Below, in pieces: positions 4,239-28,210 of a DNA stretch of 28,759 nt. The notes under the pieces are model-generated. The model was given only the letters and a program-made list of their open reading frames with translations. It did not search any database and had not been told where the DNA came from. Source of the stretch: Candidatus Bathyarchaeota archaeon (GTDB lineage Archaea > Thermoproteota > Bathyarchaeia > Bathyarchaeales > Bathyarchaeaceae). The stretch's first letter is position 1; each line of letters opens with the position of its first letter. Location of the stretch: NCBI GenBank assembly GCA_963697165.1, contig CAVOMX010000002.1:1-28759 (forward strand), read 5' to 3'. Position numbers and translations under genes: made by a program.

Positions 4239-4713
4239 TCCCTTGCCACTAAGAACCAATGATATCATTTTCTCCTTTTTTGAGGCTTAATCTGTTACTA
4301 TTAGTAATTTTCGCGTGCATTGATTGGTGAAGGGGCTCTCCCTCTAAAACGCTTTAAGAGGCTATGTTGGCAAGATTAAACCAGCTTGAAATCAATCTTG
4401 AACATATTATAGTTTAACGTATCTCAACGAATCTATTCTTAAAAAAGACAGCTAGTTAATTAGTTAAAGCCCTATCATTAGTAGTATCAACTGCTTTTCT
4501 GCTAGTCATACAACTTCTCGACTATACTTTCCTTCCATAACCAAAGTCAATCTGCATTCTGTCAGGTCAGGGCATTATCCCTGCTTATTTAGAATTTATT
4601 TAGGCCTTATTTTGTAAATGAAATTAAATAATTGTTCTAAATTTGGATTATCGCGTTTGAGACCTTTTATTTTAAATTGATGTTTGTATCTTATAATTTT
4701 GAGATGCTCAAAG

Positions 4714-5995
4714 TTGAAGCTGATCTACATCATAATCGACGGAATGGGCGACCTTCCCATAGAAGAATTAGGCGGCAAAACTCCTCTTGAAGCCGCTGAA
4801 ACTCCATATATGGATTCGCTCGCCAAAAACGGAAAAACAGGACTCATGTACACGGTCGGTAAGGGCATGGCACCCGAAAGCGACGTAGCAGTTGTTTCCG
4901 TTTTGGGTTATGATCCATTCCATTATCATGTGAGCAGGGGCGCCCTCGAAACTGTCGGTGCAGGATTATCTATGAAAAACGGTGACTTGGCTATTCGCTG
5001 CAATTTTGGGACGTTAGCGCCTGACAACAGCTCTATCTTGGACAGGCGGGCTGGAAGAAACCTGACACAAGAAGAAGCTGATGAACTAGCCGATGCATTA
5101 AACGATCAGGTACTACTGGAGTCATATCCAGCCAGCTTGGAGATTAAAAGTACTGTAACTTACAGGGCAGCATTGGTTATACGAAGCAAAGAAGGAAGGT
5201 TCTCAGGCAACATAAGCAACACTGATCCTGCCTACAAGAGGATCAATAGTGTAGGCGTGGCTGACCTAGAAGCCAAGATGATACTGAAAACCTGTAATCC
5301 TCTTGACGAAACTGAAGAAGCAAAAATTTCTGCAGAACTGGTTAACGAATTCACACAAAAGGCTACGTTTGTTCTGGATACGCATGAAGTAAACAGGAGA
5401 CGTGCCAAAGAGGGAAAACTGAAGGCTAACGTCATACTCAGCAGAGACGCGGGTAGCATGGTTCCGAAGTTTCCCCCGCTCAGCGAACTTTATGGACTCA
5501 ACTTTGTTTGTCTCGCTGACATGAATGTTGAAAGAGGAATAGCAAAGCTCGCGGGAATGAGTTTAGTTGATCTTCCTCTTCCATCAAAAAACCTCGAAAG
5601 TGATTGTAAACTTAGAATAAAGAAACTGTTTGAGGTTCTGGCTAATTATGACGGTTTTTACATTCACATCAAGGGTCCAGATGAGCCCGGTCACGACGGC
5701 GATTTTAATGCTCAAATCTGAACTCATCGCTACTGTTGACAAATATTTTGTGGGCGAAATGCTCCAGAAAATAAATCTGGAAGATTACATTGTTTGTATA
5801 ACCGCTGATCATTCGACGCCCTGCAAACTAAAGGCTCACAGTGACGATCCTGTTCCCCTTCTAATCGCAGGAAACAAGCTGCTAGGGGATAGGGTTCAGA
5901 AATTCTCTGAAAAAGAATGCAAACTGGGAGAATTAGGTGTTCTAAGTCGAGGAACTGAGCTTATGCCCAAGCTGGTTGACTTTATGAAAGAATAG
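4714..5995 (+). CDS. apgM: 2,3-bisphosphoglycerate-independent phosphoglycerate mutase (archaeal type); one frameshift near 5712
   Basis: IIIDGMGD, TPLEAA, PESD (catalytic Ser), DRRAGR and HIKGPDEPGHDG in ORF 4684..5721. TADHSTP...HSDDPVP follows in ORF 5630..5995. Confidence 0.9.
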
Positions 5996-20169: not shown

Positions 20170-21933
20170 TTAAATGAACCTTCTGGGGTCGCTGTCAATA
20201 TCAACTATAGTAGTTTTACCGGATACCAAAGCTTTGTCAACTGCTGCCTCAAGCAGAGTGGGTTCGGTGACTTTGATTCCTAATCCACCTGAGTGCTCAG
20301 CGTAGTTCGCGAAGTTAAAATCGTACAGTTCCGTCTGCGAGCTCTTGTAGCCTTCGACTTTTTGTTCTTGCAAAATCATACCCAACGACTTGTTGTTAAT
20401 TATGAAGACTTTTACTGGCAACTGATACTTCAAAGCAGTCAGGAAATCGCCCATAACCTGAGTGAAACCACCATCACCCGTAATGCAAACAATCTGCCTG
20501 TCCGGATAAGCAAGTGCCGCTGCCATAGCACCTGGCAAGCCGAACCCCATCGACGCCAATAACCCACTCATGACCATTTTCTGAGTCTTTTTCATCTGGA
20601 AATTCCTCCCGAACCACCAGCAGTTTTCCCCAACGTCCAACGAGATGATCGCGTCTGCTGCGACTTTATTGTTCAGCACCTTCATTATATACGGCGGCCT
20701 TATAGGTTTCAACGAAGCATCAGCTTCCCGTAGAAGTTGTTGGTTCCAGACTTGCTTTAGATTTAAGATTTCATCTAGATAAGCGATTTTCTGATTCGGT
20801 TGAACTTTTCTAGTAAGTTTCCGAAGGAGTACAGCACTGTTACCGAGTAATCCAACTTCGACAGGATACTTCCTTGCAATGTTCTTCATGTTAATGTCGA
20901 TTTGAACCATTCGTTTCTTTGGAATCTGCGTATATTGACTGAAGGAGGAGCCGATTACTATAAGCAAATCTGATTTCTCCACTAGTTTAGCAGCAGTTGT
21001 TGAACCAATACCGCCGTGGCAACCTGCCGACAAAGGGTTGTCTTCGTCGATAACACCCTTCGATCTGAAAGTGGTCACTATGGGCGCGCTGATTGTTTGA
21101 GCCAGTTTCAAGAGTTTGTTTCCTTGTCCTCTGGTCCCGAAACCTGCGATTATTACCGGACGCTCTGCTTGGTCTATCGCTTTAGCGGCTTTCTCTATAA
21201 GCGAATCCTCTACGCCGAAGGCCAAACTAGGCATTCTGCCCTCGAATGGCTGAATGTTCTTGTCACAAGGTAGTTTTTGCACATCGTTAGGTAAACCGAT
21301 GTTGCTTACCCCTTGATCCAGTAATGCATGTTTTACGGCGAGCGTGACTAGCATCGTTGTTTGTTCTTCAGTCATGAGAATTTTATTAAAGACACAGATC
21401 GGCTCGAAGAAACTATGCTGGTCGATTTCTTGGAGTGATCCCGGTCCAATAAATTGCCTCGCCACCATACCTGACAAAACAAGAACTGGCGAATGATCCA
21501 AGGAGGCATCATAAAGGCCTGTAGCTAAATTAGTTGCTCCGGGTCCGGAAACGCTTAGGCAAGCAGCAATATTTCCGGTGAGTTTGCCGTAAGCGGAGGC
21601 CATGAAAGCTGCAACTTCTTCGTGTCGCACTTGGATGTATTTTATTTTGTTACTTTTCCGTAGAGCGTCAACGACCCCAAGTGTTGATGTTCCAGGCACT
21701 CCGAAGACGTATTGTACACCCCATTCTGCGATTTGTTCAATTAGAACTTCTGATACTGTTTTACTTTTCTTTAACTGTTCCACTGTTTTCTCTGTTAAGA
21801 TTACGAATACGGTTTTGGGTACTCCGCACACGGGGCACACCCATTCTGATGGCAAGTCGCTGAATTTCTTTTCTTCTTTTAATTCATCATATACATAGTT
21901 GCAAACTGTGCACCTGTACTTTGTCACGATCAA
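20170..21933 (-). CDS. rubredoxin-fused thiamine-pyrophosphate enzyme (pyruvate oxidase/PoxB-like)
   Basis: N-terminal [11 protein letters not shown]...[14 protein letters not shown] rubredoxin, followed by [25 protein letters not shown] and the TPP motif GDGG...NN. Confidence 0.88.
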
Positions 21934-22580: not shown

Positions 22581-23929
22581 CTATCCCATAGCAGCACAAG
22601 TATGATTCTTCTTTTGGAGATCAAGAGGGCATCCTCCTCCACAAATCTGCAGTTGGGGACACTCCCTACATTTTGGTTCTACATATTCTCTATTTCTAAT
22701 TTTGACCGCTAGCGGATGATTCCAGATGCTTTTCCAATCATTCTTCAAGATGTTACCTAAACTCTCAAAGTAACTCTGGCAAGGATATACATCCCCGTTT
22801 GGTCCAATACACATGTTAATCATTGCAGCTGAACAAGATTTTATACCCAAACCGAGCTCGATTGGATTAAATTTACAGTATTGGGTTGGAGTATACCACA
22901 AGAATTTTAATCCCAGCTTAGTTGCTTTATCCTGAACCTTTGGCAGAAGAATCTTCAAATCTTCAAGAGGAAAAACAAAATCTTCAATTACATCTTTTGC
23001 TTTTCCAGAATAGATCAAACTATTGCATCCGAAGGCAGCAACCCCCAAGTCCTTAATAAAATCTATAGTATCAAGAAAATCCCCCGCATTATACTTACTT
23101 AATGTTGTGTTTGTAGTTGTGTAGATTTTTGTTGGAATCAGATTCTTAATTCCTGCTACCGTCTCCGTCCAGCTTCCCATAATACCCGTCATCAAATCAT
23201 GAATCTCTGGCCTATGAGACTCGAGAGTTACCTGAACAAAATCAAGTCCAGACTCCCCGAGAGATCTAACATATTTTTCATCAGTTAATCTTCTTCCGTT
23301 GGTAATTAGACCCGTTACTAAACCCTTTTTTTGTCCATAACTAAGGAGTTCAAGCAAATCCTCCTTTAAGGTTGGCTCTCCACCCGTAAAAGTCAAAATA
23401 AAAACGCCAATCCGATAAAGATGATCAATAACCTGCTTCCATTGTTCAGTAGAAAGTTCATCTGTTTCGTGGGATCCACCAGCATAACAATGAATACAAC
23501 TATTCTGGCATCTGAAAGTAAGTGACACATCAACCCGTATAGGAGCAGAATACTCTTGGCTAAAAGGCTCAATTTTCTTTAAGTCAAGATATGATATAGG
23601 ATCCACTTCTTCAGTCTGCACCAATGTACATTAACAGTATAAACCAACTTTTCATAATCAACCCTGGCACGTCTCTCTTTAACCCGAAAAATACTTCTAA
23701 TCTTAGAGACAACCTCTTCAGTTGTCAAACCCTGCATCAAAAAATACGCATAAGCTGTAGAAGTCTCGTTTAAAAATAAAACCGTGTTCGCATTAATAAT
23801 CATAAGCCCATTACCGTCAGATTCAACCCGAAGTTGAAGAGCTAAACCCCTAAAATGGCCTTCCCCTCTATAGGTGTATCTTCCTTGAGGAATTTTTGAT
23901 CTCTGAAAAATCTTACGTGCAAAACCCAT
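22581..23929 (-). CDS. radical SAM/SPASM protein with N-terminal PqqD-like RiPP recognition element; one frameshift at about 23628
   Basis: ATG 23929 (MGFARK...) encodes an RRE-like domain (LRVESDGNGLMIINANTVLFLNETST...TTEEVVSKIRSIFRV...ARVDYEKL). It continues in ORF 22581..23624 with CQNSCIHC, FTGGEP, TNG and SPASM CSAA..GDVYPC...CRECPQLQICGGGCP. Confidence 0.88.
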
Positions 23930-23945
23930 AATCAAACTTCCTTTA

Positions 23946-25577
23946 CTACCCAACTCCTCCACCAGCACATGCACAGGCGCATGAAACACAAGCACAGGCG
24001 CATGCACACGTAGCACAAGCACATACACACTTGGCTTTTTGTTGCACTGGTTGCTTAGATGATTTTTGCTTAGGACCCATGGGAACTATAGAATTAGCAA
24101 ATTTTTCCATATTGACAACAAAATTATTAGCGCTCTTTTCTATCGCAGTAGCTATATTATTAGCAAAATCTGCACCAGGAATTGTAGGAGGTTTTTTTCC
24201 TTGAGCCGGAACCCCAATATTAGGCTTGTATGTCGGATTCGGAGAATAATACCTATAAGAATACCAATACCAAAACCAAAAAGGACTAGGCTCAAAAACC
24301 CTATTGCTAAAAACTGTTTTAGTTCGATCTGAAACCTTCGGATCCAAAAACAACCAGAGCAACTGTTCATCATAAGCTTTGGAGGTTAATTTTGTTGTTC
24401 CAGCTCCTTCAACCTGTCCCCAAGCTTTCTCAACAATCTTTCGATAATAATCTATCGTGTCACTTCTACAATATCCCTTCAACTTTTCCTCCATAGTAGA
24501 TTCAAGAAACATAATCATTGAAGCAAGCTTCTCCTCACCAAGAGACCCGTCATCATTAATAGAATTAAGAAAATCGATCTCATAATATCTCAAAGGATTC
24601 TCTGGCGTTCCTGTTTTGTCAAGGAATGGTTTTAGTATCCTAAATCTAAGAGAAGGAGATGTGTTCTCAACCCAAACAGCCCTCTTCTTAAGAACACTAT
24701 ACAATATCTCAGTGACAATCTGAGGCGGCTTTAAATCCAAAAGATAAGAAGCTTCTACAGCAGTTAATCCCCTTACTATTCCTAGACATTCAATACCAAC
24801 ACTAGGTTTTGAATAGGGTCGCTTACGAGAAACAAATAATACAAAAACTAACACAATCCCAATGACTCCAAATACCAATAATGGCCAAAAACTCTCCAAA
24901 AAATTTTCTAACCCGTCAGATCCATCAGTAACTGAGGTCCATCCTTCCTGTTTTGGATAGGAAACTTCAACCGTAAATCTTTCATCTGGCAAAAGATTTT
25001 GCTTTTCCCAATAAACAGCCAACCTATCATCTTCATATTGGACATTATTCCAAAAGATTGACCCTGTTTTCACTTCACTCTCAGAGACTCCAGGAGGCAA
25101 AACAATAAGCACCCGTGCATCTTCAATAACTGCTTCTGAAAACCAAGATAAAGTAAATTGCATTCCATCATTTCCCGGATTAGTTTCGTCTTCATAAATC
25201 ATGTGAGCAACATTCGTAACCAAAGTAAACCAAACAGTCTGTCCAGCTTGTAAAGGAGAATCAAGATTAACCCTAACATTATAGTCACTTCCAGAACTGA
25301 TATCAGCTGTTTCTAACGTATTCCCAAACTGATCCACAGCAGAACCGATAAAAAAGTCGCCTTTAGGTTGACCAATACTTATCCAATTAATTTCCTGACC
25401 AAAATCAAGAGTTAAGCTAACATTATAAAAAAGATCAATAGAACCGTCCGAATTTATCCAAACTTGCGCCCATTCCTGCCCAAAAAAATATTGCCTCTGA
25501 GCAACAATCCCCTCAACAAATGAAAAACACACTAACCCAACAAGTAACACAACCAGAACAGCAGACAACTTCACCAT
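23946..25577 (-). CDS. single-pass membrane protein (DUF2207-like ectodomain) with C-terminal Cys-Ala repeat tail
   Basis: Signal peptide, then a beta-rich domain starting VWINSDGSIDL, a TM helix FWPLLVFGVIGIVLVFVLFV followed by SRKR, a helical domain, and the tail KCVCACATCACACACVSCACACAGGGVG*. Confidence 0.85.
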   Translation of the reverse strand: MVKLSAVLVVLLVGLVCFSFVEGIVAQRQYFFGQEWAQVWINSDGSIDLFYNVSLTLDFGQEINWISIGQPKGDFFIGSAVDQFGNTLETADISSGSDYNVRVNLDSPLQAGQTVWFTLVTNVAHMIYEDETNPGNDGMQFTLSWFSEAVIEDARVLIVLPPGVSESEVKTGSIFWNNVQYEDDRLAVYWEKQNLLPDERFTVEVSYPKQEGWTSVTDGSDGLENFLESFWPLLVFGVIGIVLVFVLFVSRKRPYSKPSVGIECLGIVRGLTAVEASYLLDLKPPQIVTEILYSVLKKRAVWVENTSPSLRFRILKPFLDKTGTPENPLRYYEIDFLNSINDDGSLGEEKLASMIMFLESTMEEKLKGYCRSDTIDYYRKIVEKAWGQVEGAGTTKLTSKAYDEQLLWLFLDPKVSDRTKTVFSNRVFEPSPFWFWYWYSYRYYSPNPTYKPNIGVPAQGKKPPTIPGADFANNIATAIEKSANNFVVNMEKFANSIVPMGPKQKSSKQPVQQKAKCVCACATCACACACVSCACACAGGGVG

Positions 25578-25909
25578 TTTGGTTCCTCAACTACCTCAAA
25601 AGTATGACCACAATAATCACAAGTAGCATATGGCACTCCGGAAACAGTCTTTATACTATTTGAATTTATAGAAGCCGAACAGTTTGGACATTTCAAAGCA
25701 ACAGCTTTCATCTGACCCGAAAACTCCAATCTCTGAATACTCACCTTAGGTTTTCTAGTCAAGTAATATACGATCCCAAAACCTACAACAAAAAATAAGC
25801 CAGCAACAATTAATCTTGAAACCGCAAACACCGAAGCGAAAGCAAAAATAATTCCCAAAAAGAAAAGAACAGCAACTACAATCGAGCCCAAAACCATCTT
25901 CAGATTCAT
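25571..25909 (-). CDS. 2-TM membrane protein with C-terminal zinc ribbon
   Basis: Two hydrophobic helices, then CPNC...CDYCG. Its stop overlaps the start of the 543-aa gene. Confidence 0.8.
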   Translation of the reverse strand: MNLKMVLGSIVVAVLFFLGIIFAFASVFAVSRLIVAGLFFVVGFGIVYYLTRKPKVSIQRLEFSGQMKAVALKCPNCSASINSNSIKTVSGVPYATCDYCGHTFEVVEEPKW

Positions 25910-25930
25910 AGATACATCTGAGGCACATTA

Positions 25931-25938
25931 AATATAAA
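25931..25938 (-). promoter_or_regulatory. TATA box of the radical SAM operon (probably a near-leaderless transcript)
   Basis: TTTATATT on the minus strand, 22-29 nt upstream of ATG 25909; no obvious RBS. Confidence 0.5.
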
Positions 25939-26030
25939 AAAATATTCTGTAATTTGCCTCCCTATTCTTTATCCAAAAACCCCAAACCCAAAATATTTGC
26001 GCACGTTCTCGGTTAAGAATTGACAATCCG

Positions 26031-27504: not shown

Positions 27505-28210
27505 CTAGTAATGTATTCTATGTTTATGTTGATTGAACTTCTTCGGTTTTAGGGTGTATTCACTGATTTTTATGAACAGCCTGTCGTTGCGTTTTTCTTT
27601 TGTGAATTTTGAAATTTCTATGGTTTCTTTGAATGTTGGTCCATCGATAGTCATGGTGTGGTATTCTCCGTTTTCTCCGCAGGGGTCCATTCCAGTCTTT
27701 TTTGCTAGTGCCCTCAAGTCGTTGACAGAGTTTTTGTTGAGTTCTCGTCCAAGCCATTCTTCAGTGAACCATGTCGTCTCCCCAAGCAAGTGAAGACCGA
27801 TCTGAATCCCGTTGACACTTCTTCTTCTAGAACTTTGCTTGTGTTTTGCTCCCACAAGGGCATAATTACGGATATGTCTAATCCCTCGGTTACTTTATCA
27901 ATCCATCGTCCATGCAAGTCGTCCACAACGTAGATGTCTCCGGTTACTATGCCTTCGATGCCTTTTTCTATCAGTTTTTTTATGGCTTCTCTGTAGCTTT
28001 GTTCGTAGGGTTCTTTTACTTTGAGCTTTAGAAGGGGTATTCCCATTGCTTTAGATTGGAGCTCCATGATGGATAGCGGGTGACAGAATGAGGGCCATGT
28101 ATCGGCAACGAAAACTGCAAGATATGCTACTTCGTGTCTCTTTCTTTCATTGCCCTGTAGCACGCTAGGGCTGATTCAATTCCGCCACTCCAAGAAATTG
28201 CTATTTTCAT
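27505..28210 (-). CDS. diphthine--ammonia ligase-like (Dph6/DUF71) PP-loop ATPase; several frameshifts
   Basis: ATG 28210 gives MKIAISWSGGIESALACY. Then GIVTGDI and MPLWEQ (ORF 27714..28163), and WLGREL and DPCGENGEYHTMTIDGPTF (ORF 27505..27855). Confidence 0.8.

Follow-up and report, generated by a model that had tools for sequence, protein, structure and literature searches.

A 28,759-nt stretch of DNA (the window: positions 1 to 28,759 of contig CAVOMX010000002.1, assembly GCA_963697165.1, Candidatus Bathyarchaeota archaeon) carries on its minus strand a cassette of three packed genes. They encode a small Zn-ribbon membrane protein, a 543-aa membrane protein that ends in a run of alternating Cys and Ala residues, and a radical S-adenosylmethionine (rSAM) enzyme of the SPASM type, preceded by a PqqD-like recognition element (RRE) of the kind used on peptides that are made by the ribosome and modified after translation (RiPPs). 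Gene order, co-occurrence and tail conservation point to the Cys-Ala tail as the probable substrate of this enzyme, which is what the original prediction, made from the window sequence, had proposed. The features of the cassette, in order along the minus strand and with the evidence for each, are as follows.

25927..25940, minus strand: TATA-like box TTTTTATATTTAAT, ~30 nt ahead of the first ATG (sequence)
25571..25909, minus strand: Zn-ribbon membrane protein, 112 aa, C-terminal end VEEPKW (open reading frame (ORF) list, weak zinc-ribbon family matches)
23946..25577, minus strand: 543-aa membrane protein (ORF, AlphaFold2 (AF2) model, Foldseek, hydropathy)
24081..24182, minus strand: aa 466-499 of that protein, IPGADFANNIATAIEKSANNFVVNMEKFANSIVP, candidate segment for recognition by the RRE (conserved columns in alignment A2)
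23949..24029, minus strand: aa 517-543 of the same protein, C-terminal tail CVCACATCACACACVSCACACAGGGVG, putative substrate (sequence)
23632..23929, minus strand: RRE (PqqD-like) domain, in the frame of the ATG at 23929 (NCBIfam, AF2 model of a homolog)
23630..23631, minus strand: 2-nt insertion splitting the RRE from the rSAM part (alignment and public contigs)
22581..23624, minus strand: radical SAM and SPASM part, 347 aa from a TTG at 23624 (Pfam)

The coordinates in the ORF list match the packing first described, with a 7-nt overlap between the first two genes and a 16-nt gap before the third. A TATA box had been placed ahead of the operon, and an AT-rich, TATA-like element is indeed present about 30 nt from the first ATG; it presumably acts as the promoter. 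An AT-rich box is kept at -36 to -26 in 55 related loci, with an AT fraction of 0.96-1.00 at -30 to -27. The first gene had been read as coding for a Zn-ribbon protein with two transmembrane helices. Its CPNC...CDYC motifs are present, and hydropathy shows one clear hydrophobic stretch, N-terminal in the protein, after which the sequence contains a second one; matches to zinc-ribbon families are weak. Synteny was followed in 80 loci from a scan of species-representative genomes, nearly all of them Bathyarchaeia, three of which are cut by contig ends. The Zn-ribbon gene lies upstream of the membrane-protein gene in 79 of these 80. As stated earlier for the window, the operon holds no short ORF for a precursor peptide, and in all 55 loci measured the RRE starts between -11 and +21 nt from the stop of the membrane-protein gene, so there is no space for a precursor gene between the two.

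The rSAM ORF of the window matches the Pfam families Radical_SAM (9e-24) and SPASM (2.5e-11) and contains the radical SAM cluster motif CxxxCxxC in the form CQNSCIHC. Both families are also matched in all 55 fused homologs, and the Cys residues of the SPASM region are invariant in alignment A1 (C351, C365, C373, C383, C420, C423, C429, C433), a set that, judged by sequence, is the one for two auxiliary clusters. The RRE frame of the window gives an NCBIfam match to the lasso PqqD family (2.4e-4). In this family the norm is a single fused RRE-rSAM-SPASM protein of about 448 aa: RRE and rSAM stand in one frame in 73 of the 77 related loci holding both parts, and at least 60 loci have an uninterrupted fused ORF of 441-465 aa, 448 being the most frequent length. 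The AF2 model of the closest intact homolog (locus L006) has a predicted local distance difference test score (pLDDT) of 75 and a predicted template modelling score of 0.79. At aa 16-104 it shows four strands (16-53) and three helices (55-104), followed by the barrel and the SPASM region. In Foldseek the model is aligned along its entire length with SuiB (8.1e-16, TM-score 0.60 over 447 columns), SkfB (1.3e-15), CteB (1.8e-12) and PqqE; SkfB is also the best match in the PDB by sequence (1.7e-22), and the lipid-modifying radical SAM enzyme GDGT-MAS is found among both the sequence and the fold matches (7tol, 2e-13). Based on the model, the enzyme has the fold of an RRE-rSAM-SPASM peptide maturase. 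Among the best 25 of the 75 NCBIfam families that match the window enzyme, no curated cut-off is reached (AhbD 143.5 bits against 500, MftC 122.7 against 265, StsB 82.3 against 625, ACGX rSAM 78.4 against 400), and the CrpC family (TIGR04463) is not found among these 25.

The third gene had been described as one enzyme with an N-terminal PqqD-like domain and a full SPASM domain. All of these parts are encoded, but in the window they lie in different frames: the PqqD-like frame (23929..23579) and the rSAM ORF (23624..22581) overlap by 46 nt, and the 2 nt at 23630-23631 are extra relative to all eight aligned homologous loci. The same 2 nt are absent from every contig that covers the site in four public sequencing runs (one contig in X1, one in X2, three in X3 and one in X4), contigs that are 90-99% alike to the window and not identical to it. 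The break is probably an indel error of the assembly, because two further genes of the window and a second copy of the cassette are frameshifted as well. The first of these genes, at 4684-5995 on the plus strand, encodes a cofactor-independent phosphoglycerate mutase in two overlapping ORFs that match the Metalloenzyme profile at 3-169 and 169-239; the other, at 27505-28163 on the minus strand, is a diphthamide-synthase-like gene split into parts that match its profile at 22-140 and 147-217. The second full copy of the cassette lies in the same genome bin, on contig C21 at about 32450-35800 (loci L002 and L003), and is about 86-94% identical to the window proteins; two frames are needed to read its membrane-protein gene and three to read its rSAM gene. 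It may belong to a second strain in the bin or be a decaying duplicate. Other genomes with the cassette nearly all give a single match, and five show two, mostly fragments.

Alternatively, the insertion could be genuine, in which case this strain would have either no active enzyme or an RRE and an rSAM part produced as two proteins. The deposited sequence does carry the 2 nt, a TTG/GTG start lies just after the rSAM frame opens, and discrete RRE proteins function elsewhere, as StsC does with StsB according to the available text of PMC10288494. Nevertheless, this explanation appears unlikely, as the 2 nt are missing from all contigs covering the site in the four public runs, even though these contigs are only 90-99% alike to the window, and the other frameshifts in the window and on C21 indicate indel errors in the assembly.

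The membrane protein is rarely found without the radical SAM gene, a separation that the original prediction had named as speaking against it. The order Zn-ribbon protein, membrane protein, RRE and rSAM is kept in 77 of the 77 Bathyarchaeia loci that reach far enough, and among 401 genomes of the class 102 contain the membrane protein, 100 the enzyme (E<=1e-90) and 99 both, so that 99 of the 103 genomes with either have the two together. The membrane protein stands alone in three genomes, as partial matches only (G136, G008, G139), and the enzyme in one, as a partial match on a small contig (G003). Outside the three genes each of 10 window ORFs matches 0-4 of the 80 loci; the conserved unit is therefore the three genes, and a search of the ten neighbouring ORFs for a fourth conserved gene in Bathyarchaeia gave none. 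The distribution is that of a patchy accessory cassette: in the window's genus 5 of 12 genomes have it, and the membrane protein is found in 73 of 219 high-quality genomes. The enzyme gene shares the frame of the preceding membrane-protein gene in 28 of 55 Bathyarchaeia loci, with a gap of 0 in 17, and translational coupling is probable. Read-through of the stop codon to give one fused product was considered and is not supported: 28 of 55 is near chance for loci that are not independent, and in the window the frames differ and two stops intervene.

For the 543-aa protein the earlier description as single-pass stands with regard to the ORF, its end in CVCACATCACACACVSCACACAGGGVG and its single internal transmembrane helix; it missed an additional N-terminal helix that may serve as signal or anchor. 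The AF2 model (pLDDT 80.3) begins with this helix, followed by a confident beta-sandwich ecto-domain (aa 29-208), a transmembrane helix (aa 231-251) and a cytoplasmic domain, again confident (aa 273-422). The remainder is made up of a disordered linker, two helices and an unstructured tail. In Foldseek the ecto-domain resembles ribophorin I/Ost1 (best 3.9e-12) and the N-domain of M1 aminopeptidases. By hydropathy the transmembrane helix is followed by the K/R-rich stretch RKRPYSK, and neither hydropathy nor AF2 predicts a second internal transmembrane helix in the protein. As there is a single transmembrane helix with none predicted after it, the tail is likely to face the cytoplasm, where the radical SAM enzyme works.

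The protein has more than 1555 homologs. No Pfam match to DUF2207 (PF09972, PF20990) was found in the window protein, and of 81 relatives scanned none reaches the gathering score, with sub-threshold matches to the N-domain in three and to the C-domain in four. Likewise, the window protein has no match to TIGR04222, and among 12 proteins scanned the relatives P0222 and P0199 reach 31.4 and 21.5 bits against a cut-off of 43. By curated cut-offs the family is thus neither DUF2207 nor TIGR04222, with weak sub-threshold links to both; DUF2207_C clusters in the ESM Atlas, at 0.88, provide a lead only. From its sequence it is best described as a type-I membrane protein distantly like DUF2207. In five relatives (P0153, P0154, P0159, P0176 and P0177) the ribophorin-like ecto-domain is fused to other C-terminal parts, which take the place of the transmembrane helix, the cytoplasmic domain and the Cys-Ala tail; Pfam assigns a NosD/beta-helix domain to P0153 and a pectate-lyase-like domain to P0154.

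Frequent loss of the tail among homologs had been named as an outcome that would speak against a role as substrate, and counts in three homolog sets show the reverse. Ten Cys are kept in all 118 full-length proteins among the top 120 matches (60-98% identity), a Cys-x-Cys tail is found in 96 of 103 representatives of at least 480 aa, four of the seven exceptions sharing only the ecto-domain, and in a more distant branch, whose related 7-Cys tail ends in ...CACACACAGCACACAGGGR, the tail is kept in 116 of 117. Among 78 Bathyarchaeia loci in which the gene is complete at its end, 72 have ten Cys with the same spacing and one has a frameshift. These 72 tails were gathered by their Cys pattern, as was alignment A2, so that the invariance of the Cys is given by construction and only the non-Cys positions were free to vary. 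Of these 12 positions 8 are invariant in 72 of 72 tails, each with 3-6 codons, and identity at third codon positions across the 72 tails is 0.47. On these grounds the tail is, as far as sequence can tell, under selection at the protein level, and the constancy of its Ala, Val and Ser speaks for a precise structure or a fit to an enzyme and against a loose thiol-rich patch. A DNA repeat or slippage as the origin of the Cys-Ala run was rejected, with 2-6 codons used per position while the amino acids stay constant. The most conserved part of the membrane protein is the tail and not the remainder. Ahead of it, the segment at aa 466-499 is conserved in alignment A2 and contains two FANxI motifs (the FANxIxP region); it is a putative recognition sequence for the RRE.

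The pairing was also approached from the tail alone. In distant relatives, with 28-35% identity to the membrane protein, the C-terminus reads GGGG-CACACACAG-CACACAGGGR, and metagenome contigs were scanned for DNA encoding CACACACAGCACACAGGG, which gave at least 121 stretches, of which 80 loci were taken. The in-frame ORFs at 77 of these tail-first loci all end exactly in GGGR. Pairing was counted where 1500 nt or more of downstream sequence were available, in 55 loci. Of these, 40 contain a strong match (360-575 bits) to the profile of the Bathyarchaeia enzyme over RRE, rSAM and SPASM, on the same strand in 39 of the 40. Ten more matches come from shorter flanks (three strong, seven cut by contig ends), and 42 of 49 on the same strand start within 110 nt of the stop of the tail gene. 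In another 6 of the 55 the rSAM enzyme is a variant with a weaker match, encoded at a distance of 1.1-4.1 kb (L095, L113, L116, L127, L133, L150). This variant is shorter and lacks a Pfam SPASM match; Pfam PqqD is matched in two of the six, and a SAM-dependent methyltransferase gene follows directly in four. Upstream, 34 of 48 tail-first loci have a same-strand ORF of less than 220 aa with two CxxC motifs, most of which end in TEEPKW or a close variant. Named members of the 7-Cys branch come from metagenome-assembled genomes of Deltaproteobacteria, Cloacimonadota and Edwardsbacteria, and a third tail variant is found in the record of a Methanocella isolate. As side observations, phospholipid-synthesis genes and a nitroreductase gene follow the tail gene in L133 and L137, and an extra 560-1850 nt lie between the tail gene and the enzyme gene in L094, L101, L104, L109, L146, L155 and L160.

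The conserved tail, the conserved pairing and the lack of space for a precursor gene give genetic support to the interpretation that the tail of the membrane protein is the substrate of the radical SAM enzyme. It is considered likely that the enzyme modifies the cytoplasmic Cys-Ala tail, and that it does so most likely by thioether crosslinks, the chemistry being the inferred part of this reading. The cassette would then be a self-contained unit of a Zn-ribbon membrane protein, a type-I membrane protein and a fused RRE-rSAM-SPASM enzyme. In the cytoplasm the enzyme would dock via its RRE on the FANxIxP segment just ahead of the tail and alter the tail in place, yielding a modified membrane protein and not a released peptide. 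Sactionine or ranthionine thioethers could give the tail the rigid shape of a ladder or a hairpin. SPASM enzymes also perform epimerisation and the oxidation of Cys to formylglycine, and the chemistry on the tail may instead be epimerisation of alternate residues or formation of formylglycine from Cys. If the tail is the substrate, Cys-derived thioether crosslinks are given slightly less than an even chance. They are favoured because the nearest solved or curated relatives include the sactisynthases SkfB, StsB and AlbA, because StsB joins CxCxC donors to GxGxG acceptors (PMC10288494, available text), and because CrpC puts ranthionines into a whole protein (PMC13692751, available text). Taken as a whole, the proposal is that a radical SAM enzyme of RiPP type, dedicated to this purpose, crosslinks the tail of a ribophorin-I-like membrane protein in place. 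With the Zn-ribbon protein as its partner in the membrane, this would yield a covalently stapled, sulfur-rich element on the membrane's inner face, with a structural, metal-binding or redox role, and the cassette would be present in many anaerobic archaeal and bacterial lineages; the proposal is judged somewhat better than even.

Several observations weigh against this reading. Modification of the tail is deduced from gene linkage alone, and the genomes compared are related and not independent, so that fewer independent events lie behind the counts than they suggest. By sequence the RRE is weak, Pfam PqqD being matched in 12 of 55 fused homologs with a best E of 4.6e-4. Both the enzyme gene of the window and the C21 copy are frameshifted, and function in this organism is not assured. 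AF2 gives the tail no structure (pLDDT ~35), nine Cys and not ten are found in 5 of the 78 Bathyarchaeia loci (L023, L033, L034, L040, L046), and 9 of the 55 tail-first loci have no rSAM gene in the flank. Two of these nine, L135 and L137, may have been cut short, as they resemble L133, in which the enzyme lies 4.1 kb away, farther out than their own contigs extend. Prediction of a complex between the fused enzyme (A1) and the 100 C-terminal residues of the membrane protein (A2), with three 4Fe-4S clusters and SAM, scored 0.00 twice; controls were not run, and the result is evidence neither way.

Among other explanations for the tail, it could be a binding site for metal or an iron-sulfur cluster, or a redox site, for which the rSAM enzyme builds or loads the cluster, or on which it merely docks while acting on another substrate. 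Alternating Cys would put every thiol on one face of a strand, and the nine tail-first loci without an adjacent enzyme would fit a site of this type. In addition, distant TIGR04222/DUF2207-like relatives have Gly/Cys-rich tails, some without a modifying enzyme (PMC12452194, in the text available), and the authors of the CrpA study also suspect metal binding (PMC13692751, likewise). Yet Ala, Val and Ser are as fixed as Cys (8 of 12 positions in 72 of 72 tails), which plain metal binding does not need, the enzyme has the architecture of a peptide maturase with an RRE, and 99 of the 103 genomes with one of the two genes have the other as well. This explanation is improbable. A true substrate elsewhere, in the form of an unannotated small peptide, the Zn-ribbon protein or a membrane lipid, with the membrane protein as an anchor or partner only, is regarded as very unlikely. 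Within the cassette the Zn-ribbon protein, with its conserved TEEPKW end, is kept as well as the other two genes are, the lipid-modifying GDGT-MAS is among the matches of the enzyme, and a few tail-first loci leave 560-1850 nt between tail gene and enzyme gene. Set against this, none of the 55 Bathyarchaeia loci has space for a precursor gene, genes beyond the three are not conserved, the top structural matches are peptide maturases with an RRE, and the tail is the most conserved part of the membrane protein. Least plausible of these is that the 10-Cys tail is a hydrophobic C-terminal anchor of small residues inserted in the membrane and not a soluble substrate: its Kyte-Doolittle mean over 19 tail residues (2.1-2.25) lies in the range of transmembrane helices and a K-rich stretch precedes it, but the 7-Cys version has only 15 residues between its Gly runs and is not flagged, AF2 shows no helix, and the dedicated enzyme and fixed Cys spacing would be left unexplained.

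Elsewhere in the window, the minus-strand gene at 20170-21933 encodes a thiamine-pyrophosphate enzyme, with the N, M and C domains of TPP_enzyme and an N-terminal rubredoxin fusion (Rubredoxin 1.5e-9). It lies outside the cassette, and similar genes are found in only 4 of the 80 related loci. At 858-1625 on the minus strand lies a gene for a DUF6994 protein of full length (8.5e-92); the function of that family is unknown.

Thioether formation by radical SAM enzymes has been described for small secreted peptides and, since 2026, also for one soluble archaeal protein. Modification of the tail by the cassette enzyme, a reading with good genetic support, would represent a new enzyme-substrate family inside known chemistry, with an integral membrane protein as a type of substrate not yet described. 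If true, it would extend RiPP-like chemistry to the cell envelope, as the first case of an integral membrane protein matured in a RiPP-like manner, and give a first functional handle on the large and unexplained group of DUF2207/TIGR04222-like membrane proteins with low-complexity tails. The 10-Cys branch contains more than 1500 protein clusters and the 7-Cys branch more than 1400; the cassette is common, and one biochemical result would annotate thousands of genes. The hypothesis lends itself to a direct test, as the tail is short and invariant and the enzyme a single polypeptide.

The statement that no characterised example of this arrangement is known holds for this family in the literature searched, with the qualification that whole-protein crosslinking has been published for CrpC and CrpA (PMC13692751, available text). 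No paper describing this cassette was found in that literature, and the supplements of PMC13692751 and PMC10288494 may already list the family. Similarly, no paper linking DUF2207 with radical SAM enzymes was found, the DUF2207 literature being off-subject as judged from titles and abstracts. The membrane protein shares with DUF2207 the ecto-domain beta-sandwich, the transmembrane helix, the cytoplasmic domain and a low-complexity C-terminal tail, in addition to the UniRef label on two relatives and weak matches to the N- and C-domains. It differs in its Cys-Ala tail and its rSAM partner, neither of which was found described for DUF2207 in the literature searched.

A related proposal concerns TIGR04222 membrane proteins, whose Cys-bearing tails have been suggested on bioinformatic grounds, untested, to be substrates of MNIO enzymes (oxidative enzymes that depend on multinuclear non-heme iron) (PMC12452194, in its available text, as for the points from it below). 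The likeness lies in membrane proteins with low-complexity, Cys-containing C-terminal tails that are linked to a RiPP-type enzyme, while the link by sequence is weak (P0222 1.4e-7, P0199 1.5e-4). The enzymes, in contrast, belong to the MNIO superfamily and not to the radical SAM enzymes, and the tails, rich in Ser and Gly, are predicted to lie in the periplasm. Linkage is also loose in that system, as one third of TIGR04222 genomes have no MNIO gene (PMC12452194).

With regard to the enzyme, SuiB, SkfB and CteB have the same domain order and fold as the cassette enzyme, but only 16-20% identity, and their substrates are short, leader-bearing peptides. The closest precedents are CrpC/CrpA and StsB/StsA, together with the TIGR04222 proposal. 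CrpC of Methanococcus voltae was shown experimentally to crosslink the 28.8-kDa CrpA with thioethers (ranthionine) (PMC13692751; the following comparison is likewise drawn from the available text). Both systems comprise an archaeal RRE-rSAM-SPASM enzyme and a whole Cys-rich protein encoded alongside it, with a Cys-rich C-terminal part. CrpA, however, is soluble and has ten 17-residue CxxQ/D repeats, and a membrane protein, a Zn-ribbon partner and Cys-Ala alternation are all absent from that system; the terms membrane, DUF2207 and TIGR04222 do not occur in the available text of the paper. A parallel to the tail is provided by StsB of Streptomyces sparsogenes, which joins its CxCxC donors to the GxGxG acceptors in a nested hairpin (PMC10288494, available text). 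The StsB/StsC/StsA system resembles the cassette in combining a radical SAM/SPASM enzyme with an RRE and in linking CxCxC donors to small Gly acceptors, and the StsB NCBIfam model matches the window enzyme at 3.2e-23, with 82 bits against the cut-off of 625. StsA, in contrast, is a precursor peptide, short and preceded by a leader, and the RRE of that system stands as a protein of its own (PMC10288494), whereas in the cassette a 543-aa membrane protein terminates in the Cys run, with 7-10 Cys alternating with Ala.

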